The translations under genes and the position numbers were made by a program. Under the pieces are notes generated by a model. The model searched no databases. It worked only from the letters and a program-made list of their open reading frames with translations, and was not told the DNA's origin. From the IMG/VR virus record IMGVR_UViG_3300017958_000005, positions 1-64,000 of that record: 64,000 nt of DNA. One strand, 5' to 3'. The stretch comes from an uncultured virus (IMG/VR IMGVR_UViG_3300017958_000005) (Duplodnaviria; Heunggongvirae; Uroviricota; Caudoviricetes). Shown in pieces: positions 37,984-61,032 of the stretch. Positions within the stretch are counted from its first letter, which is position 1. Each line of letters begins with the position of its first letter.

Positions 37984-40827
37984 AACGCTGTAGATGGTGA
38001 CGAGGACGGTCTCGTTCAGGAGGGCACCCCCTTCGAGCGTCCAGCCACACCCAATGTCGCTCGCGCCCTTAGGAGCGCCACAAGTTCCGCCGGATTCGAC
38101 GGGATGAAACGCGACGATATGGCGAAAATGCGTTCAGAAGAATTCAACGAGGCGGTACAGAAACAGTTCGAAAAAGCAAAGGAACTGAGGGCCGAACTGT
38201 ACGAGAAATATCCAAAACTGGATGCGATGCTTGCAGCGCAGCAGATTGCGACCGTCACTTCAGTTCGCACCGGTCAGGACATCCGTGAAGAAGATGTCAT
38301 GGAAGAACTTCAAGATCTGCTGAAGATCGATAGCGACGAAATCGACGACCTAGCAGACATCATCGCCAGTACACGATTCAGCCAAGACCTCCTCGAAGCG
38401 GACGAAGCGCAAATGTCAATTTCTCGCGCTCGAGATTTCGTTGAGGAAACAACTGAGGACATGGGGAACATCTCGCTCGCAATCACCGACATGGAAGAAG
38501 ACGTAGAAACCGCTCTTGACCGAATCAAGAAAGAACTTGACGGCATGGAGATTTCTACAGGGCAATTCAAAGATCTTGCTGAATCCGATGACCGTGCCGA
38601 CGCAACCCGCAGGCTACTCACTGATTTGATTGACGACCGAGAAGAACTTGAGCAACAGATTCCTCAAATGGGCTACCTTCTTGAAGATTACGACGAGGTC
38701 AAGGAGATGCGCGATCAACTCAAAGACCTCGTAGATGAACTCGAAGAACTTTCAAGTGGACCTGTTGAATCTAGGGAGCGGGGACGAGATCTGCTTAAGC
38801 AAGGTTTCCTGAACGCTGACTCACTAAACACGGGGTACGACGAAGACAAGTTTCGTGAGATGCTTGGAAAGTTCCGCAAGACAAAGACTTACGAGCGTGC
38901 CACCGAAGGGATGACAATCGTCCGCAAGCGCAGTATTCCAAAATCTGAACCCGTTGCTGACAGCGACGCCGCAAGGGACATTCATGGACTTGGAAAGCGC
39001 AGCATCATCAACATCCCGGAAACGGGCGTTCAGGTCATGCTCAACGATGATCAACGTGGCGATGCTCGTCGCACCATCGCTGGTCTCAGGTCATCAACAC
39101 AAAATCCTGATGCTTTCGAGAAGATGGACGAGTGGCTTTCCGGTAAATCGCCCAATATTTCGCGAGATCAGCATGAGGAGATTTTCAACGAGTTCGCAGA
39201 TGCCGCCAACCGGGATTTGGATCTTGGAGACCTCCGACACGTCCGTGACGCGATCAACTTGGCGGCAATGTCTGAAGATGGAAAATGGAAAACGCCAAAG
39301 GCTGAGGGTGGATTCGATGGAAGACCAAAACCCGCTGGTCTGACTAAGCGCCAAAGAGCAGATTTGTTGGAGTGGGGGCAAAACGACGCAGATGACATGC
39401 TGCGTAGACGCTTCGTTGGTCTGAAAGAAGATGATGTGTCCCCCAAGGGGTGGATGATGCTCCGCAACGATTTTGGCGGTGGCATGCGTTCAGCAACTGG
39501 CGGTGGAAGCATCAATGAAACGCGTGACACCGGCAAGCGAGCACAGCGAGGTAGGCCGGTTGGCGCTGGTGATGAGAAGAAATTCAAGGGCAAACCGTTC
39601 TCGGAAGTAAAACCTGACAATTGGGATCAGTTGACTGCCGATGAGAGGTTTGACGAACTTCTTACGAATTTGCACCCTTCTAAGACCGGTCTTCGAGAAG
39701 TTGACTTCAACCGTTTGAGAAAAGAACTGGTGCTGGAGTCTCTCCGCTCAGATCAGGAAAGCGAGCGTGCTCGACGTCGGGCTCAGCGTCGGGAAGCGCT
39801 GGCGAACGTCAGGGTAAGCAAACCAACTGAGCGCCCTGCTGCTCGACCTGCTCCAGTTGCTACAACCGCTGAACAAGCCAAGAAGCAGCGTCAGCAGGAA
39901 GTCACGAAAATCGGCAACCGAGTTGCCCGTATTTCGTCAAATATTGACAAGCAGTTCGAGAGAGACGAAGAACGTGGTTTGGACCCCAACGATGAGTCCC
40001 ATAGAGATATTTGGGCGTCACTTACCGACATTTTGGAAGATAGCGATGAGTTAACCCTGTCTCAAGCAGAATCCATCGCTGCAACCCTTGACGACTACCT
40101 AGAAGAAGCATCCGGAGCAGATCTTACTGCAACCGAATCAAACAGTGTCCAAAATGCTCAGGTTCTTCGCGCAGATATGGGCGATCTGATTGACAGATAT
40201 AGGCTTGACCCGAATATCAGCAAGGGTGACAGTTCAGCGGCGGTCCGAATTGGCGGCGAAGGTGAAGAAGATGTCGCCACCACCGGCCGCTCCGCCGCAC
40301 GATTCCTTTCCGAAGGCGGAATGCGATCATTTACCTCATACAAGCCTTCCCCAACCGTCCAAGAATACGCAGAAGCACGCAGAAGCCAAGGGCTACGCAG
40401 TCAACAGGCTGGACGAACCGTAATCAATGAGGAAGCGACATTCTTCAAGGCAATCGAAGATTCTCTGGCAAAAGAAATCAGAGAAGCACGTAACGCCAAC
40501 GATTCACGAACGGTTAAGGGGCTTGAACTACTTCAGCGAATTATGCGTCGTCAAGATTCAGGCAAAGTCTCGGATCGTCGAACCAACGCCGGCGCACTTT
40601 GGGTGACGGCAGACGAAGCCGATGAGATTTTGGACGCGATGATGTTTGCCCTTGACCGACAAATGGAAACAGGCGGATCTAGGGTGGACCTGTATGCACA
40701 ATTTGTCGAAATTATCTCGGCTGCCGCAATGGGGACATTCATCAGCAAGACGACCTCGGAGGTTTCGTCACGAACCCAAGCACGAACGAACAGTCAAGGA
40801 CGACAAGTAAATATCCCGAATCAGTAG
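37951..40827 (+). CDS. Large head-associated protein, probably made as a -1 frameshift fusion to the protease
   Basis: The track ORF 38104..40827 extends upstream in frame to 37951. The extension encodes the shared tag FDPNAVDGDEDGLVQEGTPFERPA. Confidence 0.75.
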   Translation, partial: SLRGRAQSFDPNAVDGDEDGLVQEGTPFERPATPNVARALRSATSSAGFDGMKRDDMAKMRSEEFNEAVQKQFEKAKELRAELYEKYPKLDAMLAAQQIATVTSVRTGQDIREEDVMEELQDLLKIDSDEIDDLADIIASTRFSQDLLEADEAQMSISRARDFVEETTEDMGNISLAITDMEEDVETALDRIKKELDGMEISTGQFKDLAESDDRADATRRLLTDLIDDREELEQQIPQMGYLLEDYDEVKEMRDQLKDLVDELEELSSGPVESRERGRDLLKQGFLNADSLNTGYDEDKFREMLGKFRKTKTYERATEGMTIVRKRSIPKSEPVADSDAARDIHGLGKRSIINIPETGVQVMLNDDQRGDARRTIAGLRSSTQNPDAFEKMDEWLSGKSPNISRDQHEEIFNEFADAANRDLDLGDLRHVRDAINLAAMSEDGKWKTPKAEGGFDGRPKPAGLTKRQRADLLEWGQNDADDMLRRRFVGLKEDDVSPKGWMMLRNDFGGGMRSATGGGSINETRDTGKRAQRGRPVGAGDEKKFKGKPFSEVKPDNWDQLTADERFDELLTNLHPSKTGLREVDFNRLRKELVLESLRSDQESERARRRAQRREALANVRVSKPTERPAARPAPVATTAEQAKKQRQQEVTKIGNRVARISSNIDKQFERDEERGLDPNDESHRDIWASLTDILEDSDELTLSQAESIAATLDDYLEEASGADLTATESNSVQNAQVLRADMGDLIDRYRLDPNISKGDSSAAVRIGGEGEEDVATTGRSAARFLSEGGMRSFTSYKPSPTVQEYAEARRSQGLRSQQAGRTVINEEATFFKAIEDSLAKEIREARNANDSRTVKGLELLQRIMRRQDSGKVSDRRTNAGALWVTADEADEILDAMMFALDRQMETGGSRVDLYAQFVEIISAAAMGTFISKTTSEVSSRTQARTNSQGRQVNIPNQ

Positions 40828-40916
40828 AACGTCAATAAGTACTCCACAGAATAAGCCAATTTTGGGGTACAATTTGACAAACGGTCCTCACGAAAAAACA
40901 GTTTAAATACCTCTGC

Positions 40917-42479
40917 ATGGTCACAGGCAAACAGGCTATGATGCCATGTAGTGGTTGTAGCATCTCTAAGAGATGTTTACTGAATAACATGCAGTACAAG
41001 GAGCCTACCAACATGGAACAAGAAGAGAAAGCAGTCATCAAGATCGATGCCGAGGGCAAGATGATGAACTGCGCCAAAGGCCATGGTGGAGACGACTGCG
41101 GCTACAAAACTGGCGCGAAGATGTGCGGCAAGTGTGGAGCCATGGCAGTTGAAGTAAAAGATGACGATGCCGACTCCGAAGATCTCGAGGCCAAGTCCTA
41201 CGATGAAATCGACGAAGACGACGAAATTATCGAAAAGGCACTCGCCGCCGTTGCTACCGATGAAGACGAGGACGAGGACGAGGAAGAGTCCGACGAGGAA
41301 TCGGATGATGACGCCGAGATGAAGGCTGTTGGCAACGCTCCACAGATGGATGAAGAAGAAGACGAAGAAGACGAAGACGAAGAAGAGGACGACGTTGCCC
41401 CCGCAGAGGCCGCCCCAGCCGAAGAGGCCACTCCTGCCGATGATGAGCCCACCCCTGATTCTGATGCCGAGATGGAAGAAGAAGAAGACGAAGACGAGGA
41501 AGAGGACGACGAAGAGGAAAAAGGCTGGATGGGTGACGCTCGCAAGCGCCGCCTCCAGACCATGGGGCGCAAATCTGCCGACCTTGGTCAGACCGGCTTC
41601 CTCTGCGCCGTCGAGCGCAAGGTGTACCCGGGAAGCGCATCCGTCTGTGACGACTGCCCGGGTGGATGTATCGCCGAAAAAGGCATGCCCGGTCTCATCG
41701 AAATCGAAGGCAAGGCCGAAGCAGAGTTCAACGGTACCGTCATTGATTCCGGATACTCGCAGGACAGCGACATCTACGTCATTGACCTTGAAGTTAAGGA
41801 CGGACACGCCATCGAAGTGTTCATGGAGGGATCCACTGGCGAAACCCTCGGCTTCCATCGTCTCGACGACTCTGTGTTTGAGCAGAAATCGCTGACCGCT
41901 GACACCGAACTAATCGATTTCAACGTCGCTGCCGAAATTGCCGTCAAATCAATCGAAGGGGTTGAAGGCATCGTTACCGCTGTGGAGCCTGACACCTTCG
42001 AAGGCTTTGACGTTTACGCAGTAGAGGTCGACGGTATTGATGGCAAGTCATATGACGTATTCGTCGCTCTAGACGGAGAAGTGCTTGGTTTCGACACTTA
42101 CGAACCGGACGAGGCGGAAGAGATTGAAGCCGAAGCGGCAGAAATCGCCCTCAAGCGTGCGTTTAATGAATCCCAGCGAGAGGAAATGGCCAAAGAAGGT
42201 CTTGCGCTTCCTGATGGTTCTTTCCCAATTTCCAATGTTGACGATCTGCGCAACGCAATCATGGCCCATGGCCGCGCCGTCGACAAGGAGAAAGCCAAGA
42301 AGCACATCATTAAGCGCGCCCGAGAAATGGGTAAGGAAGAGATGATTCCTGCTGCTTGGACATCCGCCAAGAAAGAAGACGCCGAGGTGAACGACATCAA
42401 CGACGCAAGTTTCATGCGTTCGCTGGTCGAGTTTGAAATGCTCATGAACGAGGACGACAGCAACGACGGGAACTCCTGA
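40917..42479 (+). CDS. Acidic scaffold-like head protein with Cys clusters, tandem PepSY-like domains and a DUF6582-like C-terminus
   Basis: D/E-rich tracts; two PepSY-like units; ALPDGSFPI...DLRNAI...GR...HIIKRA; alternative start at 41013 after AAGGAG. Confidence 0.7.
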   Translation: MVTGKQAMMPCSGCSISKRCLLNNMQYKEPTNMEQEEKAVIKIDAEGKMMNCAKGHGGDDCGYKTGAKMCGKCGAMAVEVKDDDADSEDLEAKSYDEIDEDDEIIEKALAAVATDEDEDEDEEESDEESDDDAEMKAVGNAPQMDEEEDEEDEDEEEDDVAPAEAAPAEEATPADDEPTPDSDAEMEEEEDEDEEEDDEEEKGWMGDARKRRLQTMGRKSADLGQTGFLCAVERKVYPGSASVCDDCPGGCIAEKGMPGLIEIEGKAEAEFNGTVIDSGYSQDSDIYVIDLEVKDGHAIEVFMEGSTGETLGFHRLDDSVFEQKSLTADTELIDFNVAAEIAVKSIEGVEGIVTAVEPDTFEGFDVYAVEVDGIDGKSYDVFVALDGEVLGFDTYEPDEAEEIEAEAAEIALKRAFNESQREEMAKEGLALPDGSFPISNVDDLRNAIMAHGRAVDKEKAKKHIIKRAREMGKEEMIPAAWTSAKKEDAEVNDINDASFMRSLVEFEMLMNEDDSNDGNS

Positions 42480-42502
42480 AGGCTGGGAAAGAGTGGCCCA
42501 CT

Positions 42503-45500
42503 ATGGCCAACATCCGGGCCGAACGAGTAATACTTTCTGATCGCGTCAACACCTATCGACGTGATTACGAAACCATTGGTGCTCTCTTTCGGATAAAGAG
42601 TGCGGTACTTGCTTCCCAAGAGAGCCTTGACCCAAACATCTCTGTAAAAGCGTTAAATCAGGATCTTCCCAAAAAAGATAAAAAAGATTCTGAGAAGCGC
42701 ACTTCTGGTACGGGAGTTGAAGAACAACTCCCCGAACTTCGCTATGCGCCTAACGGCAAACGTGGCCGTGGCGACGTACTCAAACTGCATGTAACCCCAC
42801 GCGACCTCACAACTGGCAACGAACCAAACTTTGGTTGGATTCCTGCTCCTGAGAAAAAATCCGAAGAGGAAACACGCAAACAAATGCGTGAACTGTTGGA
42901 TTGGAAGAAGCGCCGACCCAAAGTTCGCGTCAGGAGTTTTCGTGCTGACCCAAGAACAGGTCAACGAGTAGAGGATTCCGGTGTCGATGTCGAAGTAAAA
43001 GGACTCGGCAGAAAACTGAACCAGATTGTTCCCGGAGGGAATTTGTCCTCACGTGCGGCTGGGGCAGTTGGAGTACTAACTGACGCAAACGGGAAATTCC
43101 GATGCCCGCCCGGAACCCCGGCAGCCAACCAGTTCACCGATGAATTTGGTACAAACTGTTTCAAACCAGCACTCTCCTCGCGTCGACTCATTGGAGCGAT
43201 GCGTCGGTGGTTCGACAAATATGTTGAACTCGGAGAACAAATCCAACTGCTTGAAAGCATGGGCATATACGGTGTCGGGCCAGACGACCTAACCCCTCAA
43301 TACAGGCAAAACATCCGAAACATGGTTCGGGCTGCTGGAAGTGTTGCGCCAAAAGAACGCGTCCAAGAAGTTCAATCCCGAATGGACACCGCAATTGATG
43401 CCCTCCAAACACGACTTGGAACGACTCGCGACACCACAGACAATGCCGACATGTGGACCGCGCTGGCAACGCTGGCCGCCGATGAATGGCAAGACCTTGA
43501 CTTCTCAGGGATTTTTTCCGGACCGGAAGGCTGGGGTTCGTGGAACAAAAACATGCTTGCCGACCCAAAGGGTCGCACTCCTCAAGCAGCAGCAGATCAC
43601 ACTGCCGACGTTCGTAGCCAATACATCTCAATGTTTGACAACTGGGTGTCGGACGGCCCAATGCGCCAAAGGTACCGAGATGGAGACCCCGAAGCCAGAG
43701 CCCTCATTGACGAAATGGTTACCCGCCATCTGGCAGCAGAGCGTGGCTTCTTAAAGGCGATTCTTCAGGAGTATCAAGAATCCCCGGAAATCATGCGTCA
43801 AGTAAAGACGCTAGGCCGAACGCAAATCCGTGATGGCGAGGCGTTTGATGACTATTGGCGAGTAGATGGAGAATGCAGCCCGGCAGGTTTCCACCCCAGA
43901 GATGGGTTCGCTCTGAATATTGACTTCAACGCGGCAGCAGTGGCTCTGAAACCAGCAATCCAAAACGGACTAGCAAATTACACTTCTGACGGCCGCATCC
44001 TCTTATTCGATATCGACCCCAACGATGTGTCTCGCTCATTCACTTCGGAAGCCGAACAGTGGGCCGAAATCGGAAACCTGATGCAGAACACCGTCGATCT
44101 TGAACGGTGGCGAAATGTTTACGCTCAAGACCTTTCTACCGCACGCCACGGCTCAATCGAAGCAAAGGGTGTGCATATCGCAAAACATGAACTTGGTCAC
44201 GCCCGCCAGTACCAGTTCATTAAAAATGCCGTCTTGGACACCCACGCCAAAACAGGCTCCACCTACTTAGTCAACTCAACTTCAGGTCAAATTGAACGGC
44301 TCGACGTTTCTCCCGATCAGTGGACTAACCAGCAATGGGTTGATGTGGTGACGAGTCAGGTTCAACGTCTTATCCCAGAAAAGTACCTCGCCGATGGCTT
44401 CCCACCGACGTCGCTTGAGACGTTCGAAGGAACAATGCTTCACATCATGGCGGGAAGGTATTACCAAGACGAAGTTCAAAATTTCTTCAACTTGAATGAT
44501 GATGCCAAACGAGGACAGTCGGCATTGATGATGCTCGAAGGCATGACAGAATTGCGCGCGCTTCGAGATATGGGTGTCCTCATGGATCCAGAACTCGACC
44601 GGCTCGTGTCATGGATGGACGACGTTGACCCCAGAACACCGGAACGCCCTGATCCGCAAGGAGTTATCTGGCCGCCGCCGACAAGTTCAGCAATGCAAGT
44701 GTTCCAGCCGGATCCCAATGGAACGTGGGACACAATTAGCCGCACCCCGATTGAAGATCCAAACCCGTTCATTCCTGACCTTGGCGGAAAACAGGAACAT
44801 ATCGATGCCATCAATTCACGCATCTCAAGTCTCAATCGCAGTCTTCCCGACGCCGAAAGAGACCTTTTTGATCCAAGAAGCGAAGTCGTCGAAATCCAGA
44901 ACGGCAATGACGTTGTCGAACAACTGAGAAGTGGCAAAACCGCTCTCGACATTGAAAACCTGACGGTTAAGAAACAGCAAATCATTGACCGCGAAGTACT
45001 TGCTGAGGACATCGCAGCAACAGGAGAAATCGACGATGTTGGGGATCTCGAGGTCGGCGATGCCATCCGATTCAAAGGATTCAAAACACTTGATCGCCGC
45101 ATGGATGCTGATCAAGAACAAGACCTTTCGGCTGACGAAGGAAAACGGAAAGTCAACTTTGTTCTACCTAAGGGAACAAAAGGCATCGAAAAACAAAACC
45201 CGGCGAACAACGAGCCCGATCAGGTTGAGATTCCCGGCGGAGAATACGAAGTCCGTTCTGTTAACCCAGATGGAACTGTCACGCTAGTTCCCCGCAGCCA
45301 AGATGATGCCGACACCGTTGCTCGTCGCCTCATCGACAGTCTTGATGGAAGTTCCGACATAGACGACGTTCGCGATGCTGTAAGAACAGTTCAGAAACGG
45401 GCGCAGAAGTACGTCCAGAAAAAGGAAAAGATTCGTCGAGCCACGCGATCCAGCGACCCGGCCACCGCACAACGTATGGAGCGGCGCAATGCGGCGATTG

Positions 45501-48500
45501 TCGAAGAAATTCGGCAACGTGGAGCAAACCCATTCCGCGTAACCGACAGAGATATCGAACGCATCTGGGGCTCTGTAAGACCCGGTGAACGTCCACCATT
45601 CACCCGTGCCCAAGCAGAAGAGGCTTACGGACGTGCGCTCGAAACTATCGAAGATCTCCGTGGCCGACCAACAACTGGGCGATTTGGTCGAGCATTGGAA
45701 GCAACTGATGAAGTCAGAGAATTCCTAGAGACCGCCCGCCAAAGCGAAATCGGTGCGCGTATTGAACGCGCTGTAATGGAGTACCACAACGGTTTCGATT
45801 CACGCCCACGATACCGGACCGACATGGACGGCCTTCAGAGCATCATTGACACAGGGGACTCACGTGGCCTCATCCCGCCACGCGGTTCTCAGTGGGATCC
45901 GTTCCTTGATGCTGAAGATGCCATGCAAGGGTTCACTCCAGATGATGGAATTCGTCCACTCTTCGGCAATCTGCTGCACGCTGACGATGACAGCGCCATT
46001 CAACGCTACTTGGACAACATCAAGGGTTACGCCGCTATTCGAGACTCGGAGTTCTTCGATCGGGTAACTGAGTCGCCACTCGGCAAAGTCCTAACCGGAG
46101 ATGTCGAATTGGTTCTTCGTGCCGATGTCGCTCGCCGAACCGGATACGGAATTGGTGATGCACGAGGTCAAATCGCGTTTGGCGTCATGATTCACGACGA
46201 CGATCCAACGCGTGTCCGTCAAGCACTCCTGACACGTCGATTTGGCGGACCTATTGACGACACCGCAACCACAGGCGCAGCATTGGACTTCTTGCACGCA
46301 GACCTGACCGGTGACTACTCGGGAATCAGAACCCCGATGGACACCCTTTCCCTTGACGCTGGCCTCAGCGTAGACGTCAGAGATCGAACTATCCGTGGAC
46401 GAGTAGACGCAGATGCATTTATCGCAGGCGGATTCAACGGCGAAGAACTAGAAAATGTTCGAATCGGTAGTGCTTCACTGAACTACAAACGTCAATTCCT
46501 AGCACCAGCAGAAGTCGGCGCGAACAACAGCGAACTCCGCAAGAGGCTCGGTCTTGCCGGTCTCTCTCAAACTGAAGTAGACACCGTGTTTGAGTTCGCT
46601 CAAAGCGGCCGCCTCGACCTCGAATCAGCCGACTTGCTACGAATGAACAAAGCAGCACGGGAACAGGCAGACCGTTTCGCAAGAGTCGGTATCAGCACAA
46701 CTTTCACCAACGATAAGGGCATTAACGTCCTTGATGGTGCTTCGGTATCGGTAGAAACACCGGGTATTGGCCGCATCGAAGCATCCAAGCGTGCCGACGA
46801 CATCCTGCGTGTACGCCTTGAGGGAGAAATCGCCGAGCGCGCAGAAGACATTGCCAAACAAATTCGATCTGGTGTTGGTCTTCGTTCAGCAACCTCTTCA
46901 CCACGCCGAGACGCCCCAATCAATGTCGTTGACCCCTTTAGTGATGACCCATTTGGCGGTGTGGTTGACCGAGCACGGACTGTTGTCACCGACCGTATTC
47001 GCGACGAAGTAAGCGAAAGAGCAACGGCGCTTGCAACAGAGAAGATTGGCCGTCTGGGAGCCAAACTTTCCCGTCGTCAAGTTCAGAATCGCGGCATACA
47101 AAGAGTTGGCATGAACGTTCTTCAATCGGACCGAGCAGAAAATTTGCTTCGTCGGGCCGGACTTGAGACAGACGACATTGAGAACATCCGCTTTGTCGGT
47201 GAACTTGCTGCTGCCTTCGGAACTTCCGGACCGGCCGGCGTCGGATTGGTTCTCGCTCGACGCGGAAGCCGTGAAGGAATCGATTTTGGTGTTCGCAAAG
47301 CACGCGAACAAGGTTGGATCACCGACAGCCAAGCCAACGCAATCTTGCGCGCCGCAGACACCGTTGCACCAGAAGGACTTCCTGATGCGGTGACGAACGC
47401 AATTGGTGAACAAGCGCAGCGAGCCATCAACTCAGACGCAGCCGATCGTGCTAGGGAAATCGCAAGCGCCGCCGCTGAACGTGTGCGTGAACTTGACCTT
47501 GGTGATCGTGTTGGGGACATTTTTGATAGGGGTCGCACGGCCGATACTCCTGCTCTTCCGTCCACACCCAACGACCCATTCTCCGCGAATGATCCGTTCG
47601 CACCTATCTCCGGTGGAGGGCTTCGCTCTCAAACTGGGCGTTCGATTCTCGCACAGTCGAAACCAATTTTTGACATTGAATCTGATGACGACATCAACAA
47701 ATTGGCCGACGAACTGCGAACCCTTACGCAACCAGATTCAAGAAACCCTAATAACCACGTGAGCATCGTGGCAGAAGAGTTGCGAGACATTATTGGCGAT
47801 ATAGAAACTCCTGATCTTCTCACTGGTGAACCACGCAAATATGCGGAAGACATCACTGACAGCATTCCTTCATATATTGCCAACAGAGTACGCGAGCAAC
47901 TGGGCGATATGCCGCTTTCTGACGAACAGAAGCAACGCGTTGGGGAACTGCTCGCGGCATCCGAGCAGATGCGAGAACTTGACGCCTTCCGGTTTGACAT
48001 CATGCAACGGAGGACACCTGATCAAGTCACTGATACGAATGACCCATTTGGTGGTCCACCACCAAGAAGGCCAAGCGCACCACCACCAAGAAGGCCTACA
48101 GCAAACGACCCATTCTCTGACGGTCCAGAAGAAGTTCCAGAAACGCCGCCTCAGTACACCGCTGCGCAAGCACGCGAACGTCTCGATGAGATCCTTGCAG
48201 ATTCAACGATTTTTACAACCGAATTCAATCAGCGCCAAGCAACTATCACCGAGCGAGAAAATCGTCGATCCGAAGTGGAAACACGCAGGCAAGAACTTGA
48301 GTCAGTAATCAATGAACTGGCTAGATACGAAATGGTTACCGCTGACCGTCTGACAGAAGAAATTGATAGAACTGCACCAGTTGGAAAAGCCACAACCACA
48401 CAAGCGGCCAAAATCGATCCCAGACAACACGCCCCACAGCAAGGCATTGTTCGTGACCCCAAAGAGGTCCAGCGAATCGCAGAACAGACTGTCGCTCCCG

Positions 48501-49748: not shown

Positions 49749-52234
49749 GAGCAGTACTAATTGGTCAAGTTAGAAAAAACCCGGTCTACTACGACCTAGA
49801 CGGAAAAGAAACTGACGCGTTCGTTGTCGATAAAGAAAACAACGTTGTTCCGGTCAACGTTATCTCCCTCATTGGCAAAGGCCTCATAGAACCCATCAAC
49901 GACTCCGACTTCACTGACTTCTTTTGGAATGGTTCCAAAGAGAGCAGCAAAAGATGGGAAAACATTTTTATCCATCGCGTTCAAGATGTGCCAGACAAAC
50001 TGTTGCGTGGAGTTCAAATGCTTACCACTCCACCAAAAAAGAAGAATCCGGCGCGATCGAAAGCCGTTGAGGAAAAAGCGCTGAGAGCAGATGCCTACAA
50101 AGCGCTTGTTGAGAGCGAGCAGCACGAGAAAGCACTGGGTCGAAGTCTAAATCGATTCGGTGGAAGGGCTACTGCGGGTGTTCGTGGATTCGTTCGTAAT
50201 GCCCGATGGGACCCTGACGCATTGGATGCTGACGGTGATGGTTGGGTTCAGGAAGGAACACAGTTCGCTCGTCGGATAACCGGTGCAAATGTGACGAAAC
50301 CGAATAAGCCTTCTCCACCCGAAGTCAACGTTGAGCACTATCGCGCGCTTAGAAGTCAACAAAGGCGCAATTATCAGAACTATCTAAGCGGATCGATCAG
50401 TGAACGACTTGCAAAACGTAAAGCGCGATTTTACATCGACCGCATGGAGAAAGTTGACCAAATGATCGAAAGCCGTTTCTCTGACGGCAAGCGAATCAAG
50501 ACCGTTGGCGATATGCGTAAAGCGTTTGAACGTGCTCATCCGGGTTTCATTACAGGTGACAGCACTGCCGAATACTTGAATAGCGCAGATCCTGATGAGG
50601 AACTAAAAGACACGGTTAGGGAACATGGCTACATGTTTCTTTTGGCACTTATGTCGAATCCGGACCTAACGAAAGCAAACTGGAAATTCACTAAAGTTGA
50701 TCCATCCGAAGAGTTTTCTGGCGCCGCTGCTTTCAAAGGGCCGAACAAAATCGACAGACTTGGAAAAGCACGAGATTTGCCTCGAAACCGAAAAATGCTT
50801 ATCGAGATCTCCTACAAAGATGAATTTCCCGAAGCGAAATTTAGAGATGCGCAACAAATGGATGCTCGTTTACGTTTGCAACTTGAGAACACCAAGATTA
50901 TTGCGTCCATATTGAGGTCTGATTTGCCAGACGATGAGAAGCAGGAGTTTGTTCGTCGTTTTCATGCTCGCTCAACAGCATTCCACGAAATGACACATGG
51001 AAGCATGTATTTTAAAGCGTTCACAGATTCATTGGCGTTAGTCGGTTTACAGCCTGACGAAAAAACCGACGCCGATGCGATCTTGGATGAGGTGTATACA
51101 GCAATATCAGATTTAGCACCAGAAAAAGCATCCCTTCTTGCCGATCAATTCTGGGCAGAAACTATTGCCATGCCAGTTGCATTAGTCAACCGTGTCTTGA
51201 ATTATCTTATGCTTCGTTCCAGTATGGATCCAAGAGCGAAATCAACCATGCTTGATGCGATCAATGCGGATCTCACGGATGGTCAACCCAATGCCCCTGA
51301 ACCATTGCGTGTCTCAAAGAAACTCTCCGCGTTTCTTAATGACAAGCAAATCCCGAAAAATCTTGCTAAGCCAAACGATCCACAAGATACAACCTTCGAA
51401 GAAGGTGACGCTTTATCAATCAACTCGACTATGAACATACTTGCGCATCTGGTCAACGACTTGGGTTCTGGAAATGGTTACCAGAATAGGCTTCCGTGGG
51501 CTGGACGGAAGGCAGTTAACTTTGGTAAGAGCGAAGATGACATTGCCCTGAATTGGCCGCTCCTCTTGGAACATGGAATTCCAAATACAGACCTTGATTC
51601 AGAAGATGTAAAAACATTGCTTATGGCAAATATTCGCATTGGAGAAGTAATCTCGGAAGTGCTTCAATCAGGTAATCCAGACAGCATCAGGAATTTTGCT
51701 GCTATTGCGGCAAGTAACCAAACACAAATTGCTCCCGCTGTTTGGTTGGGCCTTACTGGGAATATCGCAAATCAAAGCATGCGTGAAGCATACGTTCAAT
51801 CCAGTATTCGAGGGGGAGTATCGCAACTTTGGGAAAGCGTTAAAGCAAGCGGCACGGACCGTGATCGAGGAAGAATCATTGACACCCTCGCCTTACTCTT
51901 GGGCGTATGGGACGACCTGACCCCACAGCAACGCGATCTTGCTAAGAACTATGCCGCAATGTCGGGTGGCGGTCTTTATGCTTCGTACGCTGGATATATC
52001 ACTAACTTCACGCAGTTGGGTCGAGTTTTCGATGGACTCAACTATGAACTGCTCGCCGAACTTGGCCCCTTAGCCCTATTCGGCAATGTGGCAGAAATGG
52101 CGGATGAACAGGCTGGCGGGATTCGCGAACTTGACCCATCTGAACCAACATATGAAGCATTGCAGAAATTGATTTCGTGGCTGTGGCCCGAACTCCCCTT
52201 CGCGTTAAACGGTAAAGAGAAGGCAAAGTCATGA
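49745..52234 (+). CDS. Large head-region protein with HExxH metallopeptidase motif (829 aa)
   Basis: AFHEMTHG; shared tag WDPDALDADGDGWVQEGT. Confidence 0.8.
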   Translation: MRAVLIGQVRKNPVYYDLDGKETDAFVVDKENNVVPVNVISLIGKGLIEPINDSDFTDFFWNGSKESSKRWENIFIHRVQDVPDKLLRGVQMLTTPPKKKNPARSKAVEEKALRADAYKALVESEQHEKALGRSLNRFGGRATAGVRGFVRNARWDPDALDADGDGWVQEGTQFARRITGANVTKPNKPSPPEVNVEHYRALRSQQRRNYQNYLSGSISERLAKRKARFYIDRMEKVDQMIESRFSDGKRIKTVGDMRKAFERAHPGFITGDSTAEYLNSADPDEELKDTVREHGYMFLLALMSNPDLTKANWKFTKVDPSEEFSGAAAFKGPNKIDRLGKARDLPRNRKMLIEISYKDEFPEAKFRDAQQMDARLRLQLENTKIIASILRSDLPDDEKQEFVRRFHARSTAFHEMTHGSMYFKAFTDSLALVGLQPDEKTDADAILDEVYTAISDLAPEKASLLADQFWAETIAMPVALVNRVLNYLMLRSSMDPRAKSTMLDAINADLTDGQPNAPEPLRVSKKLSAFLNDKQIPKNLAKPNDPQDTTFEEGDALSINSTMNILAHLVNDLGSGNGYQNRLPWAGRKAVNFGKSEDDIALNWPLLLEHGIPNTDLDSEDVKTLLMANIRIGEVISEVLQSGNPDSIRNFAAIAASNQTQIAPAVWLGLTGNIANQSMREAYVQSSIRGGVSQLWESVKASGTDRDRGRIIDTLALLLGVWDDLTPQQRDLAKNYAAMSGGGLYASYAGYITNFTQLGRVFDGLNYELLAELGPLALFGNVAEMADEQAGGIRELDPSEPTYEALQKLISWLWPELPFALNGKEKAKS

Positions 52235-52569: not shown

Positions 52570-52602
52570 CATCATCATTATCTATTCTAAACTGGATACA
52601 CC

Positions 52603-53238
52603 ATGGATGAAATCGAAGTCAAAGGCCCACAAGATGTAATCCTCGACCTTCCACAGGAACGAGTCACGGCGATTACTGGCGGCAGGGGACCGCGTCGCGG
52701 CAACCTTGAGAGGTTGTTGCGCTATTGGCGTCCCATCATGAAAAAGCCGGGTGGATTCAGAAGGTGTCGTGTAATTCTTGCGGACCACCCAGAACTTTAC
52801 CCACTCGAACGAATCTGTGCTTGGCTGCACCATGAGACAACCGGTCTTTGGCCCAATGAGGGATGTCACCATCCCGGAATGAAAAACTGTAGAGGAAAAC
52901 TCAAGAAGCGGAACTGGTCTGATGCCGACTGGAGCAAGAGGATGGCTCGACGCTTCAAAAAGAACAAGAAATCTATCTTTGATCATCAAGTTGATGACAT
53001 GTTCTACGGTGATTTTATTGAACGTAAAGAACTTGAAACAGATTTCGACTATAATCAAGTAGTTACCGAAACAGATTTCAAGCATGCGATGTCCGTTTTG
53101 TCAGACTTCATGGACATGGAACCTGATTTCGTCTCGTATATCAGAGATTACGAAAACTGGGAAATCGTCGGAGACGACGAAAACGGCGATGAAATTTCGG
53201 CAACATTCGTGAAAACCGAAGATTGCGGATGTGACTGA
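52603..53238 (+). CDS. Head-associated protein (211 aa)
   Basis: LLRYW...PGGFRRC...ICAWLHHETTGLWP resembles, from memory, a motif in actinophage head-module proteins; N-terminal IEVK/GP site. Confidence 0.7.
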   Translation: MDEIEVKGPQDVILDLPQERVTAITGGRGPRRGNLERLLRYWRPIMKKPGGFRRCRVILADHPELYPLERICAWLHHETTGLWPNEGCHHPGMKNCRGKLKKRNWSDADWSKRMARRFKKNKKSIFDHQVDDMFYGDFIERKELETDFDYNQVVTETDFKHAMSVLSDFMDMEPDFVSYIRDYENWEIVGDDENGDEISATFVKTEDCGCD

Positions 53239-55193: not shown

Positions 55194-58100
55194 AACAGTA
55201 CGCTTTAGTAAAGGACATGGTTAACGGCTCGTCTTACTATGGCGTTGTCATCCGTGAAAATGGGCTTACCGAATGCAAAGGTGTTTCAGGTGTAGGCGAA
55301 AAGTGGGCGGAATCTTACAACAACGCCGAAACTAAGTCCCTTGACGATGGTCTTCCCTATGGTGTGAAAATCGGAGAATTCCATGCGTTGACTCAAAGCG
55401 AGGAAATCCTTGTCGAACACATGCTTGACGGCAACACTGTTCGTTTCCCAGACAGAACTCAACTGAAGCAACTGTCTTTCCACAAAACAGACGCTAATTC
55501 AAGCCTTCCTGCCGTTTCAAACACGCCGCTTTCAGCATTTTTGATGGATGACCTGCAAACCGCAGTTGACTACAAGATTCGCGCTTTCCTCTCCGACTCT
55601 GCGAGAGCGTCAGTGATGCTGAAGTCACGTCTTGAAAGATACGGCATCAGCGACACAACTGTCGGCTTCAAGTCTGCAAGCAATAACAGTTTCCTGAATG
55701 AAGACATGTCCAGTGTGGCTCGTGGACATGGCAATCTTCGACGTGCGCTGTTGGATATCAGAGACGCAAAATCAACCTTCCTAGAAAATCATCCGGGATA
55801 TCAGGTTGGAATCGAGGAAAAAGCAATCGGGCGTAGCCTCGGTCGAGGTGCGCGCATTGGCAGACGTGCGGCTCGCGCCTTCAAGCCATACGACCCGAAC
55901 GCAATCGATGGCGACATGGACGGAATTGTTCAAGAAGGAACACCTTGGGAACGTCCAGCAGTCAGAGTTGGTGGACGTGGCGTTCGCTTAACCCCAACGC
56001 AGCAGCGGGCAAGAAGCGAAATTGCTCCAGATGTCGGGATGCGTAGCCGGACGGGTGATGGAGAAAGCATTCAGGACAGGCTTACAGCGGCGCGTAACAG
56101 TCGACAGCAAAAACTTGCCGATCGCATGCGTGAAATGGGTTTCGACGATGACAATCAAAAAGAAATCAATGACTGGCTGAGAACCTTTAACCCGGAAGAT
56201 TTCGAATATACCGACATTGATGATCTCGAGATTGAAGGTCTGACCTCGCGCCGTGGCTCATCCAGCCCTACCGGCAGCATTTTTGGTCAGCGCCGTTACT
56301 CAAGCGAGGATTGGATCGAAGGCCAACTCGATGAGGGGCCGCTTGCTGGTTCTTTCTTTGAACTTCGAACCGCACGCGATTACACCGAAAGCAACTTTAA
56401 TGATCCGGGTGAAACGCTCGGTGGTAATGATGAGTTGACTGTTTACACGCCTGATGGTGTCGTTCTCAGTTTCGAAAACGAAACATGGGAAGACTCTTTG
56501 GACCTTATCAATGTCCGCGCACCGGGCGGTGATGGCCTTCGGTCAAGAAGTCGACGCGGGGATGACGAGGACTACCCTCGTATCGACCCCGATCTCATCA
56601 ACAGGTTGCGAAATGAACGATTTGTTCCCGAGACAAGTCGTTCTGGTCGTGCACGTCAAAACCGCATCATTAACACCCCGAACGCTGATGGTGGTCCACC
56701 ACGTCGTGCAGTCCGGGAGCGCTCTGGCCGAGTTGTCCCAGAACCACCGGCACGTGATCGGAGCGGACTGCGCAGCAGGACCGGTGACACCGCCAACAGA
56801 AATGCCGAATTGACCGGTGTAGGAACAACCGTCCCCAAAGCCATGAAGGCAAACAGGAAGTTCTTCCAAACACTTGCTGCCAACGGATTCGTTTGGGACG
56901 ACAAGCCTGACACCAGTGGCAGAGTTAGGATTTTCCTACCCGACCGCATGTCCGACTGGACACTTGACCAGCCCGACAGCGTCCGTAATCAGTGGGGCAA
57001 ATTCAAACCAGCCCGCGAAAATCAGGCAGCCGGCTTCATTCACGTACACCCCGGCAAGGACACGCCACAACGTCCTGAAAACATGGCGAAACGTTTCCTG
57101 CGCACCATTTTTGGCGACACCGCATGGGACGACATGGAAGCAAACGCCAAGAAACCCGGCGATAAGCGCGGCACTGGTCGAATCGGAGTAATTCCTTCAA
57201 CTAGCACCGGCGCGACTGGATTGCGTTCCGCAACGTCTCGTGCTCGCACTCGTACTGCCTCAACGGAAAGAGTAGCAACGCCCACCACAACCGGACGAAG
57301 CCTCCGCTCGGGCCAACTGCGCAAACTTGGAAAGCCCGGTGTCGCAAGAGGTGAAAGCGACGGAAAAATCTGGGAACAATTGGATGACAACCAACGCGAT
57401 TTGTTCAAGCAATTTGCACAGGCGCGTGAAGTTCAGTTGATGCGGAATCTCACTCAGGATGCGAGAATGCGAAAGTTCCGCAACAAGATGATAGATGATG
57501 GCGATTTCGACGAAATCGACGAGGACGGCAACGTTGTGCGGAATTACAACAAACCGCTTGCTCGAAACATCATCCCATTGGCGCAACGAGAAATTGACGA
57601 TCTGCTTCGCGATGAAAAAATCACGGAGGAAACCCACGTAAAGTGGCAGAAAACTTTGGACGACATCAAGACGTTGCGCAACATGAAGGAAAGCGACAAC
57701 TACGAAGCGCTGGAGCACCTGCATCCGGCAAGTCGTGCCAAGATCATCAAGGACGCTCGGGGTGAAGATTCAAGCATTCCGGGTGTTCGTGCACTGAAGG
57801 CTGATGGTCCGTCAACGTTCTTCGGTGATCAAGCCCGTACAGCCAGTGGTCGTAGCGCCGGTAAGAATCGGAAACCGAAAAGGAAGCGGCCTTTCGCTGA
57901 CCGCATTATCACACCGAATGTTGAACGACTACAGCGTCGGGCGGCTCGTCGTCAACGAGCACAAGCGATTCGTCGGGGAGGCCTTGTTCGCGGTCAAGAG
58001 GCTGACGTTTCTGCAACGCAAAATGCTCGACGCAAACTGGCTCGTCAACTTCGTCGAGCACGACGCAGATTTAAAGGAGAACGCGACGAAAGAGCGATCC

Positions 58101-59035
58101 GTAAAATCTTTGACGAAAAGAAGAAAAATCACCCATTGGCCCGTACAAAAGAAGGCGCTCCAGAAGTCAATGACAAGTACGTTGATTACCTTGCCTTCGT
58201 CGGATCAAATATTGATAAACGTCAAAAAGGTGAACTCTCATCAGACGTTCGCGACAGCGTCCTTCGAGACCTTTGGCAAAACGGAGGATTCAACCAACGC
58301 CCCGAACTCATTTCTGCGGACGAGATGCAGGCCCTCAGCGATGCGGGTTGGCAGGTTCTACACCGAGGAGTTGACAGACTGGGAACTCAAGCACAAGCAA
58401 ACACAGATTCGTACAAGGAAGACTTGGACCGTTTCACGCCCGGCGAAACTAATCTACGAGCACATGGCGTTGGCGAATACTGGGCTGCTCCGGGGAGTGG
58501 GCACTGGGGAGGTTACGGTTCTGGCATGCTTGCCTTCATTGACCCAGAAGGCAAAAGGATCCAGAGGAATAAACTCAAGGGATTATCAGATGAATCTTGG
58601 CCAGCAATGAAGGAAATCCAAGATCTCATCGATGAACTAGGTGATGGAGTTGCACAAGGTGAAGACCCTGCAAACTTCGTTGATCAAGTAATGGAACGAC
58701 TCCGCTCCAATGGTCTCGAAGGTCTCCTCGAAAAAGATAATGAAATCATCCAAGTGGCTCGCCAATTGCTCGACAGGTACAAGGGCATGACCCCGAATGA
58801 CACAAAGCGTGAAAATACGTGGAATGCCATTCAATATATGCTCGGCCAATCGAGGCAGGCGCAATGGTCAGGCGGAGAGGGATATTGGGCTCCAATCCTC
58901 GGCTACGACTACGTCACCTCAAACGAGGGCGTGTTCCTTGTTCACAACCGAGGCAGTGTTGCTGTGCTTGACGTCGCCGAACCGCTCAGCGGCGGAGCAG
59001 CAAAGACAATTGTAGATGGCCTCAATGAAGGGTAA
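55190..59035 (+). CDS. Large multidomain head-region protein with C-terminal ART-like domain (1281 aa)
   Basis: Tag YDPNAIDGDMDGIVQEGT; six G[LM]RS-like linkers; LHRGV...HGVGEYWA...LGYD...VHNRG. Confidence 0.8.
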   Translation: MKQYALVKDMVNGSSYYGVVIRENGLTECKGVSGVGEKWAESYNNAETKSLDDGLPYGVKIGEFHALTQSEEILVEHMLDGNTVRFPDRTQLKQLSFHKTDANSSLPAVSNTPLSAFLMDDLQTAVDYKIRAFLSDSARASVMLKSRLERYGISDTTVGFKSASNNSFLNEDMSSVARGHGNLRRALLDIRDAKSTFLENHPGYQVGIEEKAIGRSLGRGARIGRRAARAFKPYDPNAIDGDMDGIVQEGTPWERPAVRVGGRGVRLTPTQQRARSEIAPDVGMRSRTGDGESIQDRLTAARNSRQQKLADRMREMGFDDDNQKEINDWLRTFNPEDFEYTDIDDLEIEGLTSRRGSSSPTGSIFGQRRYSSEDWIEGQLDEGPLAGSFFELRTARDYTESNFNDPGETLGGNDELTVYTPDGVVLSFENETWEDSLDLINVRAPGGDGLRSRSRRGDDEDYPRIDPDLINRLRNERFVPETSRSGRARQNRIINTPNADGGPPRRAVRERSGRVVPEPPARDRSGLRSRTGDTANRNAELTGVGTTVPKAMKANRKFFQTLAANGFVWDDKPDTSGRVRIFLPDRMSDWTLDQPDSVRNQWGKFKPARENQAAGFIHVHPGKDTPQRPENMAKRFLRTIFGDTAWDDMEANAKKPGDKRGTGRIGVIPSTSTGATGLRSATSRARTRTASTERVATPTTTGRSLRSGQLRKLGKPGVARGESDGKIWEQLDDNQRDLFKQFAQAREVQLMRNLTQDARMRKFRNKMIDDGDFDEIDEDGNVVRNYNKPLARNIIPLAQREIDDLLRDEKITEETHVKWQKTLDDIKTLRNMKESDNYEALEHLHPASRAKIIKDARGEDSSIPGVRALKADGPSTFFGDQARTASGRSAGKNRKPKRKRPFADRIITPNVERLQRRAARRQRAQAIRRGGLVRGQEADVSATQNARRKLARQLRRARRRFKGERDERAIRKIFDEKKKNHPLARTKEGAPEVNDKYVDYLAFVGSNIDKRQKGELSSDVRDSVLRDLWQNGGFNQRPELISADEMQALSDAGWQVLHRGVDRLGTQAQANTDSYKEDLDRFTPGETNLRAHGVGEYWAAPGSGHWGGYGSGMLAFIDPEGKRIQRNKLKGLSDESWPAMKEIQDLIDELGDGVAQGEDPANFVDQVMERLRSNGLEGLLEKDNEIIQVARQLLDRYKGMTPNDTKRENTWNAIQYMLGQSRQAQWSGGEGYWAPILGYDYVTSNEGVFLVHNRGSVAVLDVAEPLSGGAAKTIVDGLNEG

Positions 59036-59044
59036 ACTATTGAC

Positions 59045-59428
59045 ATGAGTGATACAACTAACGAATGGGGCGAAGATCTGCAAGAGGTAGAGCGTCGACA
59101 GCAATTCACCGACCGGTTTAACGAGTTGATGGACTTGACCGACTACCCGCCATTTTCAATCAATCTTGAAAAACACAACGAGTATCGCGAAGAAGTCATG
59201 GCCTACAGCGTGAAAATCTCTGAACAAATTCGTGAAAGCGACGCAATCGAAGATCGACCATTCTCAACACTTATGGCGAAATGGGAAGATGACCTTGACG
59301 AGGCCAAACTCTACAAACAGCGTTATGGTAGGGATTTTGTTGGCGCCCAGAAAGCGGCCGCAAAGAATGACGGCATCTCCATGCGTGACGTAAAGCCCAT
59401 CGGACCACCATCAGCATATAAAGACTGA
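59045..59428 (+). CDS. Small acidic helical protein (127 aa)
   Basis: ATG 6 nt after TAAACT; TGATG overlap with the next gene. Confidence 0.7.
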   Translation: MSDTTNEWGEDLQEVERRQQFTDRFNELMDLTDYPPFSINLEKHNEYREEVMAYSVKISEQIRESDAIEDRPFSTLMAKWEDDLDEAKLYKQRYGRDFVGAQKAAAKNDGISMRDVKPIGPPSAYKD

Positions 59429-61032
59429 TGAATAAAGGGGCCGCCGGGAAAGCGCGAGCACTCCGACGCGCTAAAGAATTGGGATGCACTGGTGCACACA
59501 AACATCCTGACGGCGGCTGGATGGCATGCTCCACCCATGAAGAGTACGAGCGTTTAGAAGCCGAAGAAGAGTCCGAGCAAGAAGAAAAATCCGTTCTTTC
59601 TCGTGTTCGTGAATTCCAAAGTGTTCGCGAACGAAAAGGCAAACGCCGCAAAAAGAAAAATAAAAAGAACTGGGAAAAACTCGGTGAACGTGGCGTTGTT
59701 TCAATCGACACAATCACTGGCGGCGGGCTCGTTTCGGGCGCTGTCGCTGGAAAAGTTGCATCAGCAATCCCCCGTGACGGAGAAGAAGATGTTTTTACCG
59801 ACATCAACTCAGCACGTCGAAGGGCGCGACAACTGGGATGTATCGGAGTTGCACGACGTCGTTCCACTGGCGGTCAAGTCGTATGGACTCCGTGTTCAAA
59901 CATCACCGACTATGCGCGACGCACAGGAAGCACCGCCCTTGGCCGTCGATACATAGAACGAATGCGACGGCAAGAAGCGCGTCGAATCGTTGAAGAAGAA
60001 CGCAAGCGCGGTCGCTACAAGCGTAAAATTTCCCTATTTGAAGAACTTCACGGGAAAGCGCTCGGCAGGAAAATCCGTCAGGCTGCTGCTGTTTTCGATG
60101 CCAATGCCACGGATGGTGACAACGACGGGATGGTGCAAGATGGCACCGCTTTTGCTAGACCAGCAATCCCCAAGGGTGTCGGTAAGTCGAAAACATGGAA
60201 AGACCTCATTGAGATGGAGCCCGGTTGGATGTCCGAGGCACCAAAAAACATTCAAAGAGCAGCGTCGCAGGAAGCGAGAGAAAAACACCGGAAATTACGT
60301 GTTTCTGGGCTTCGTTCGCAGCAAACCGGGTCCGGTGGTCGTGCTCAAGTGAGTCGAATCATGCAACAAGTCATGCCAGAGCATCGTGGAAAAGAGGATA
60401 GAACCCTCTATTTCATTGGCGGAACAACTGGTGCGGGGAAGTCAACTCTCACCCGAAATGACAGATTTGGGATACCGGGGCCTGATGCTGCTGCACATAT
60501 TGACCCTGATGAGATTAAGGCCGGTTTGGTTGGCTGGGATAATGGCCGTGGTGCTGGTGCCGTTCACGATTCTTCACGACGAGTTACCGATCACGCCATG
60601 AAAGCAGCGGCTGAGGAAAAAACCGATATGGTCGTTCAGGGTACTGGCAAGAGGACTGAGCACCTTCAAATGGCTCGTCAAAATGGATATGCAACTGTTG
60701 GGCACTTTGTTCATATTCCCGGTGACGAAGCAGATCGCCGGATTGTTCAGCGAAATGCTGACAATAGGCAGAATGGTGGAGCGATAATCCCGGAATGGTT
60801 TGGGAGCCAGATTGGTCGTGAACTACAGCCGATTGTTCCTCGTCAAATTACATCCGGATTATTTGATGAATTCTTCTTGTGGGATAACAGCGGAGACACA
60901 CCCGTTCTGATTGCTAAGCGCACCAAAGACGGAAATTACAACATCAATGATATTGATGCTTTCAATGATTTCTTTAGTCCGACCGGAGCCGAGTACGTCA
61001 AGAACTACTGGGATAGTAAGTCAAGTAGTTAA
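59428..61032 (+). CDS. Head-region protein: two DUF3721-like Cys/His repeats, shared tag and zeta-toxin-like P-loop kinase (534 aa)
   Basis: AKELGCTGAHKH...WMACSTH and ARQLGCIG...WTPCSN; GGTTGAGKST, HIDPDEIK, RIVQR, LWDNS. Confidence 0.85.
   Translation: MNKGAAGKARALRRAKELGCTGAHKHPDGGWMACSTHEEYERLEAEEESEQEEKSVLSRVREFQSVRERKGKRRKKKNKKNWEKLGERGVVSIDTITGGGLVSGAVAGKVASAIPRDGEEDVFTDINSARRRARQLGCIGVARRRSTGGQVVWTPCSNITDYARRTGSTALGRRYIERMRRQEARRIVEEERKRGRYKRKISLFEELHGKALGRKIRQAAAVFDANATDGDNDGMVQDGTAFARPAIPKGVGKSKTWKDLIEMEPGWMSEAPKNIQRAASQEAREKHRKLRVSGLRSQQTGSGGRAQVSRIMQQVMPEHRGKEDRTLYFIGGTTGAGKSTLTRNDRFGIPGPDAAAHIDPDEIKAGLVGWDNGRGAGAVHDSSRRVTDHAMKAAAEEKTDMVVQGTGKRTEHLQMARQNGYATVGHFVHIPGDEADRRIVQRNADNRQNGGAIIPEWFGSQIGRELQPIVPRQITSGLFDEFFLWDNSGDTPVLIAKRTKDGNYNINDIDAFNDFFSPTGAEYVKNYWDSKSSS

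Follow-up and report, generated by a model that had tools for sequence, protein, structure and literature searches.

Giant proteins encoded beside the head genes of an uncultured tailed virus carry many copies of a short peptide motif, G-[LM]-R-S, in the first 64,000 nucleotides of IMG/VR record IMGVR_UViG_3300017958_000005 (called the window here). The motif is a selected peptide signal that is limited to these proteins and the tape measure protein (TMP), and across relatives it behaves like a site read by one co-evolving factor in trans, with concerted, lineage-specific forms. We consider it moderately probable, from comparison of sequences, that a phage-encoded protease recognizes the motif in trans as a processing site, which makes the motif a candidate cleavage site.

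The motif is enriched in the giant head-module proteins

Downstream of a gene for an S78 prohead protease (36257..37957; on the plus strand, as are all features below unless stated), about 23 kb are occupied by giant open reading frames (ORFs) of 907, 520, 2342, 829, 112, 211, 651, 1281, 127 and 534 amino acids (aa), followed by the major capsid gene (61184-62500). Because of their position in the head module and because their giant homologues have polyvalent-protein domains, we infer that these ORFs encode cargo packaged in the head, about 7,500 aa in all; precomputed Pfam matches in the homologues include ART-PolyVal (PF18760) and RNase_T (PF00929).

An earlier note on this DNA had listed 15 copies of the motif in this region and one in the TMP, and had proposed that they be counted against the rest of the proteome. 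When the sequence was re-read, all 15 were found, as was the TMP copy (GMRSQTS, beginning at 17523 on the minus strand). Enrichment was measured with 1000 shuffles each of whole proteins and of 40-aa local blocks, with 7,514 aa in the cargo ORFs and 18,216 aa in the rest. The cargo ORFs contain 11 copies of G[LM]RS where 0.31 are expected (~35-fold), so that the enrichment foreseen in the earlier note is present; 0 of 1000 shuffles reached this count, also when shuffling was confined to 40-aa blocks. Outside the cargo there is one copy (0.59 expected), and it is the one in the TMP. Extending the motif to G[LM]RS.[TQ] gives 10 cargo copies against 0.03 to 0.04 expected (~300-fold), and relaxing it to [GAS][LM]RS gives 14 against 0.84 to 0.94.

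The linkers that carry the motif are rich in G, R, S and T, so that the motif might simply follow from low-complexity composition, or else from a DNA element that is repeated. The local shuffles, with 0.31 expected and 11 observed, speak against this, as does the retention of the motif where its flanks diverge. Codons also vary among the copies (AGG, CGT, CGA, CGC and CGG for Arg; TCA, AGC, AGT, TCT, TCG and TCC for Ser), which indicates selection on the peptide rather than a repeat of DNA. A DNA-level repeat was rejected on this codon variation, and the explanation by composition or DNA repeat as a whole is refuted by the local shuffles together with the codons; we leave it next to no probability.

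Relatives carry lineage-specific forms that change in concert

The protease gene matched 342 IMG/VR stretches, from which 80 loci were kept, and the motif of each lineage was found by a blind count of 4-mers in the large ORFs of these loci. The recurrent form is G[LM]RSx[RK] in L007, L008, L010 and L011, GLSSG in L045 and L068 (8-10 copies), R[FL]SSG in L064 and L076 (11+ copies), [ST]LRSSG in L061 (7 copies), GLASST in L051 and G[FLM]AS in L040. In three whole relatives, the lineage motif occurs in 13, 12 and 12 copies, and all 37 lie in cargo ORFs or the TMP, with 0 copies in ~96,000 aa elsewhere (29,883 to 34,115 aa each) and 0.01 to 0.09 in cargo shuffles. Thus G004 has 11 cargo and 2 TMP copies of G[LM][ARS]SS[TS] and 0 in the 31,979 aa of 164 other ORFs; G005 has 12 cargo copies of G[LMF]RS.[RK] and 0 in 34,115 aa elsewhere; and G003 has 11 copies of R[FL]SSG in its polyprotein, 1 in its TMP and 0 in the other 29,883 aa. 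Among 46 representative polyproteins of at least 800 aa, the loose pattern [GS][LMFTS][RAS]S, which was picked after inspection of these same polyproteins, occurs 428 times against 68.9 expected, and 34 of the 46 exceed all 200 of their shuffles. A single protein can hold up to 14 copies of the exact lineage tetrapeptide or 23 of the loose pattern.

Individual sites change together. At eight orthologous sites shared by the window and G005, the second residue after Ser (+2) differs in 8/8 cases, the window having T or Q where G005 has R or K. The site that precedes a conserved C-terminal domain (described below) has its own lineage form in 10 aligned lineages, such as GLRSQQ in the window, GMRSER in L010, GLRSEK in L008, TLRSSG in L061, GLASSS in L051 and GLSSST in L049, and most of 62 representative homologues have their own motif copy 4 to 12 residues before this domain. 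Because such change sweeps many unlinked sites within one genome, a single co-changing reader is needed.

This reader need not be a protease. The motif might be an uncut docking handle by which one phage protein (portal, tube lumen or chaperone) loads or threads the cargo and the TMP, and its limitation to proteins that leave through the tail would suit such a role. A docking handle, however, does not sit well with up to 14 exact or 23 loose copies per protein, nor with copies at module edges and at points of gene split or fusion, a layout typical of polyprotein sites and unlike single terminal targeting signals; the capsid targeting sequence of T4 is single and terminal in the excerpts available of PMC5694885. 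The readers that were checked are also highly conserved, with the capsid protein 72-88% identical across lineages. We judge docking unlikely. Sortase-like, phosphorylation and DNA-binding readings were dropped by reasoning, since they fit neither the non-basic forms (GLSSG, GLASST) nor the module-edge layout.

The cultured Gordonia phages ScarletRaider and GMA6 have no recurrent motif in their portal-to-capsid genes, where the top 4-mers reach only 3 to 4 copies; hence not all phages with cargo at this position show the phenomenon.

Motif sites lie mostly in linkers and at module edges

Most copies had been placed in linkers by the earlier note, and this placement holds. The flanks of the 15 cargo [GAS][LM]RS sites have a hydrophobic fraction of 0.196 against a background of 0.263, a value as low as that of only 2 in 10,000 random sets. 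In an AlphaFold model of the 907-aa protein (32-row alignment, mean pLDDT 70), stretches with pLDDT <50 (residues 461-489, 715-744 and 763-767) border on confident domains and contain or touch three of the four G[LM]RS sites; the fourth, at residue 327, is folded. GMRSATG (residue 460; 39481..39501) stands at the end of a folded domain where the 461-489 stretch starts, and its G005 ortholog is GMRSSR. GMRSFTS (residue 739; 40318..40338) falls within the 715-744 stretch and corresponds to GMRSFRNYKP in L007, L010 and L011 and to GMRSMRNYKP in L008. GLRSQQA (residue 763; 40390..40410), in the 763-767 stretch, comes immediately before the conserved C-terminal domain. An extra loose match, SLRSDQ (39739, residue 546), is inside a predicted helix.

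This C-terminal domain of ~140 aa (RTxIxxEATFFK...; 40399..40827; pLDDT 85-96) closes the protease-led polyprotein in about 60 representative homologues and may target the chain to the prohead. A VIA search with the model of the 907-aa protein matched residues 585-706, and these only to generic four-helix bundles; no fold match stood out for the C-terminal domain.

The ends of homology and the breaks between genes fall near the sites as well. By hand count, 38 of 62 homologue matches to the 907-aa protein begin in residues 434-482 or 731-777 (together 11% of the protein), and 16 of the 62 begin in the first of these two intervals. L007 has an extra module of ~110 aa between two motif copies, in G004 the zeta-toxin-like protein has a motif-bearing linker that is longer by an insertion of ~290 aa, and a giant protein of G005 stops 32 aa past a site that is followed by ~880 further residues in the window. 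The boundary between the protease gene and the 907-aa gene is 114 nt (38 codons) before the first motif site. By these comparisons, the motif sites mark module edges.

Sites in the other proteins were compared with a ~65%-identical relative (P0002, P0073 and P0075) and with G005. The former retains the motif in the 1281-aa protein (residues 283, 449, 526, 677 and 704), in the 2342-aa protein (residue 1459) and in the 829-aa protein (residue 201). In the 1281-aa protein, these sites are GMRSRTG (residue 283; 56036..56056; GLRSRTG in P0002), GLRSRSR (residue 449; 56534..56554; GLRSMRR nearby in P0002), GLRSRTG (residue 526; 56765..56785; GLRSTT in P0002), GLRSATS (residue 677; 57218..57238; GLRSTT in P0002 and GMRSVR in G005) and SLRSGQ (residue 704; 57299..57316; GLRSRS in P0002 and GLRSRK in G005). 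The 2342-aa protein has GLRSATS (residue 1459; 46877..46897; GLRSAT in P0075 and GMRSTR in G005) and GLRSQTG (residue 1706; 47618..47638), the latter in a region that is absent from both P0075 and G005. The 829-aa protein has ALRSQQR (residue 201; 50345..50365), which is GLRSAS in P0073, with a GMRSRR ~5 residues off in G005. In the 534-aa protein, GLRSQQT (residue 294; 60307..60327; GFRSGR in G005) lies 29 aa before a zeta-toxin-like P-loop domain. The proposal that sites directly precede domains is borne out by this protein, in which the Pfam domain starts at residue 323, and fails for the 829-aa protein, in which the copy lies inside the ORF.

Altogether, 11 of the 15 listed sites are kept as a motif in at least one relative, two are doubtful or rejected, and two are not judgeable. 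The doubtful site is GLRSSTQ (39082..39102, residue 327 of the 907-aa protein), which lies at a helix end and is lost in G005. GLTSRRG (56237..56257, residue 350 of the 1281-aa protein) was rejected because it deviates from the motif and is unconserved in the 65%-identical relative, where P0002 has EELPSPAG. The list thus stands as far as presence in the sequence is concerned, but one entry is off-motif, another lies in a folded domain, and a third, ALRSATS (38065..38085), is protein only by way of a -1 frameshift.

ALRSATS, which follows the protease module as the first of the sites, precedes the start codon of the 907-aa ORF (ATG at 38104), and its frame offers no earlier ATG, GTG or TTG. 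The protease ORF ends in ...GAA AAA AAA GTC TGA, and directly before its stop codon a run of eight A (A_AAA_AAA; 37944..37951) is a likely -1 frameshift site. From this run the -1 frame is open, reading KK-SLRGRAQSFDPNAVDGDEDGLVQEGTPFERPATPNVARALRSATS... into the 907-aa ORF, and the product of this shift aligns colinearly with the undivided ORFs (1,641 to 3,864 aa) in which relatives have the protease fused to a 907-aa-type protein. An identical A8 run is found in 4 independent contigs. We infer that the protease ORF and the 907-aa ORF are joined by a programmed -1 shift on A_AAA_AAA, or alternatively by transcriptional slippage; only if the two are so joined is the 38065 copy translated. The aligned position in G005 has no motif, and G005 has ALRSLR at the equivalent of the frameshift site.

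A separate 23-aa element, [FY]D[PA]NAxDGDxDGxVQ[ED]GTxxxRP, occurs three times in the window (37975-38043, 55889-55957 and 60094-60162), with a motif copy 8 to 48 aa after each; the 56036 site is 27 aa past the closing ...ERP of one such element and 37 aa past its DGDxDG core, which resembles a calcium-binding loop. In 12 representative polyproteins, the element comes right after the protease module and ahead of the first site. A 3355-aa ORF of G004 that lies outside the head module opens with the element and has no motif copy.

The tape measure and capsid proteins

The TMP copy (GMRSQTS, residue 574 of 1382; 17503..17523, minus strand) lies in a Gly-rich stretch in the middle of the putative TMP, after a hydrophobic segment. 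In the same region, the TMPs of G002, G003 and G004 carry AALRSSG, AARFSSG and GAGLASST. For these four TMPs, a copy arose by chance in 46, 14, 35 and 0 of 5000 shuffles, which makes a chance match improbable in each.

The earlier note had set the motif apart from Lys sites, a distinction that stays tentative: the candidate maturation site in the propeptide region of the capsid protein, EFKSL, is invariant and also fits a loose hydrophobic-x-Ser core.

In residues 86-112 of the capsid protein (61184-61520), upstream of EFKSL, the window has GLRE, G005 has GFRE and G001 has HLSS; these are near-matches to the cargo motif of the respective lineage, in 3 of 5 lineages.

Two phage-encoded candidates for the protease

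A phage protease that cuts at the motif could be either of two enzymes, the S78 protease or a zincin-like HExxH domain in the cargo, both of which were found in every lineage examined. The S78 protease gene encodes 566 aa, with Peptidase_S78 (47 bits; cut-off 21), DUF6321 (99.6 bits; both Pfam) and a C-terminal part; it matches the PHROG head maturation protease (E 9e-32) and lies between the portal gene (34179-36164) and the capsid gene. S78 is the sole protease that Pfam recognizes in the window, in which 35 further ORFs show no other peptidase. In relatives, the S78 domain heads the polyprotein (ORFs of 1,641 to 3,864 aa), and a release-type site follows the S78 module, at residues 480-640, in every lineage. 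In virus polyproteins such as those cut by potyvirus NIa, and in the herpesvirus protease-scaffold fusion, the protease is likewise in one ORF with its substrates and has a release site just after it. A complex prediction for S78 residues 1-185 and a 46-aa linker with GLRSRTG scored 0.00, which is evidence neither way.

The zincin-like domain (43400..44632) has HELGH at residues 562-566 of the 2342-aa protein. H562, E563, H566 and E679 are invariant in 30 homologues of this protein, and HExxHxxQ is found in 9 of the 11 lineages for which the protein is available, L022 and L027 having HExxH followed by VDF. A model of the region has pLDDT 76-96 over residues 270-710, and its best fold matches are zincins of the LF/PPEP type with Z of 5.2 to 8.7: PPEP-3 (Z 5.7, rmsd 4.3 over 167 residues), PPEP-2 (Z 5.2, rmsd 3.8 over 150) and lethal factor, for which Z is 8.7 but the rmsd 17.4. 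A language-model atlas lead at 0.88 agrees with these matches. Between the window and its nearer relatives, identity over this domain is only 39-44%. The sites recognized by LF/PPEP-family peptidases are extended motifs, and at potyvirus NIa sites a conserved core is joined to virus-specific flanks.

Upstream in the same 2342-aa protein, residues 198-222 (43094-43168), GKFRCPPGTPAANQFTDEFGTNCF, are almost invariant in 30 giant homologues, with R200, C201, P202, P203, G204, T205, P206 and C219 fully so; model confidence is low there.

As to which of the two would be the cutter, we lean slightly toward the zincin, as a tentative choice, and hold the S78 protease to be possible but rather doubtful in this role. 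The less conserved, non-catalytic parts of the protease module could carry an exosite. The position of the cut is a guess, after Ser, made because of the analogy with herpesvirus sites, which have hydrophobic-x-Ala and then Ser, and T4 sites, which have Leu/Ile-x-Glu.

Several observations weigh against reading the motif as a site for a phage protease. All support is comparative. The G[LM]RS copy at residue 327 (39082) lies within a confidently folded domain (pLDDT ~92). More distant lineages have recurrent motifs of other shapes in the same proteins (L022, ISGRMG[N], 5 copies; L017, GPVGxM, 6 copies; L037, EAGMS, 3 copies, plus the related QAGMA), so that one chemistry for all lineages is not certain. 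The TMP is assembled with the tail, at a distance from the prohead protease. In G005 the TMP offers no more than the near-match GMSSQR. No copy of [GAS][LM]RS occurs in the capsid protein, the one known S78 substrate, and its EFKSL stays invariant in five lineages with different cargo motifs, so that the motif fails to follow this substrate. L007, L008, L010 and L011 differ from the window in +2 preference, yet their S78 catalytic domains are 90-94% identical to that of the window. For the zincin, the fold assignment is moderate (Z 5.2 to 8.7), the region has no Pfam match and no Foldseek match against the PDB at E <= 0.001, and a profile search with the domain alignment against PDB sequences found nothing meaningful.

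Some of these observations bear on cutting by a host protease, which would act after ejection, with the lineage forms reflecting different hosts. Such a protease would accommodate a motif in the TMP, which is assembled apart from the head, as well as an S78 catalytic domain that barely changes between lineages with differing motif forms. Yet two phage protease candidates accompany the cargo in every lineage, and phages that share 72-88% identity in the capsid protein have different forms, which would require frequent change of the host protease. Cutting by the host strikes us as improbable, and we keep a similarly small probability for no named explanation at all.

A proposed mechanism and its relation to known systems

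In the mechanism that we propose, the cargo proteins are chains of modules on flexible linkers and would be loaded into the head. A phage endopeptidase would read G-[LM]-R-S-x-[TQ] in trans and cut the chains into units after assembly or ejection. The TMP would exit the virion ahead of the cargo and be cut at its single copy by the same enzyme. The zincin, if it is this enzyme, would act once cargo and TMP are together, having traveled with both at ejection. A more elaborate proposal, which we regard as plausible without counting on it, is that a widespread clade of uncultured phages with contractile tails organizes its cargo as RNA viruses do their polyproteins. In these phages a chain of up to ~3,860 aa headed by the prohead protease, further giant cargo proteins and the TMP would share one private code. 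This code would change in concert at all sites between close relatives, together with a co-packaged LF/PPEP-type zincin, and be cut after ejection to give timed effector units in the cell.

Prohead proteases of T4 and of phiKZ-type phages cut internal proteins at short motifs, according to the available portion of PMC5694885. In T4 (gp21) and in phiKZ and SPN3US (AXE and SXE motifs), as here, a short motif recurs in proteins that are packed in the head and ejected, with several sites per protein, and the head module has a gene for a herpesvirus/HK97-related protease (PMC5694885). In those phages cleavage is proven by mass spectrometry, and the motif ends in Glu and is also used by the capsid protein. 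The present phage and its relatives differ in having an S78 protease fused to a polyprotein of up to ~3,860 aa and a Ser-centered motif that varies between close relatives, is missing from the capsid protein and is found in the TMP. The window shares with prohead-protease systems the protease gene in the head module and the recurrent motif, but not a motif at the capsid propeptide boundary.

Polyvalent proteins of phages and conjugative elements were described by Iyer et al. 2017 as giant multidomain proteins encoded in the late or structural region and delivered with the DNA, for which a zincin-like HExxH MPTase domain was proposed to cut them into units (both from the accessible part of PMC5512222). 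The window resembles them in its giant multidomain proteins encoded beside virion genes, with unrelated effector domains, one of which is zeta-toxin-like. It differs in that the portion of PMC5512222 available describes no linker motif or cleavage consensus, and in that the HExxH domain of the window has no Pfam match.

Virus polyproteins with their own protease are alike in having repeated sites with a conserved core and variable flanks. They come from unrelated viruses and enzymes, whereas here the protease would be fused to its polyprotein only through a -1 frameshift, and separate genes, one of them for a tail protein, encode several of the putative substrates. A protease and repeated sites in one ORF are found in relatives (1,641 to 3,864 aa) and, in the window, only by way of the predicted -1 shift. 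A full-text literature search, outside which subscription journals largely fall, found no description of such a motif. Compared with the known systems, what appears distinctive is the combination of S78-led polyproteins of several thousand residues, a private and fast-changing code, its absence from the capsid protein and its presence in the TMP.

Other features of the window

The window is the first 64 kb of a contig of 78.8 kb, which may be incomplete because relatives extend to 137 kb with terminal repeats. The minus strand at 1-23419 carries a contractile-tail module with sheath, tube, chaperone and baseplate genes and the gene of the 1382-aa putative TMP, which marks the phage as contractile-tailed. 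A fiber-like ORF at 1-2874 has an Mtd_N domain.

Few of the giant proteins resemble known families. Pfam and PHROGs gave zero matches in the 907-, 520-, 2342-, 829- and 1281-aa proteins, and megablast of the 24-kb cargo region against cultured phages gave zero matches. The 534-aa protein has the zeta-toxin-like P-loop domain (Zeta_toxin/AAA_33, residues 323-449) and DUF3721 (Pfam). Elsewhere in the giant ORFs the matches are marginal, namely a sub-threshold DUF493 in the 651-aa ORF and one short PHROG of unknown function in the 211-aa ORF. For the 829-aa protein, in which the earlier note had seen a peptidase region, an atlas search returned weak leads only, at <=0.82 (LPD23, LPD1 and M26 peptidase). 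The 520-aa protein (40917-42479) has a Cys-rich N-terminus followed by ~100 residues of almost pure Asp/Glu and has no motif copy; its C-terminal half is 52-78% identical across lineages. Over the cargo region at 34000-60000, the coding strand is strongly richer in A than in T (AT skew 0.09 to 0.24).

Implications

If the motif is indeed a cleavage code, the boundaries of dozens of cargo units would be readable from sequence, which would provide a parts list for the proteins that a large clade of uncultured phages ejects. The lineages would also offer a natural series of recently diverged pairs of protease and site, with T/Q in some and R/K in others at one position, in which the evolution of specificity could be studied. 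Finally, a tail protein that shares its code with head cargo would point to processing after ejection, which is scarcely documented in phages.

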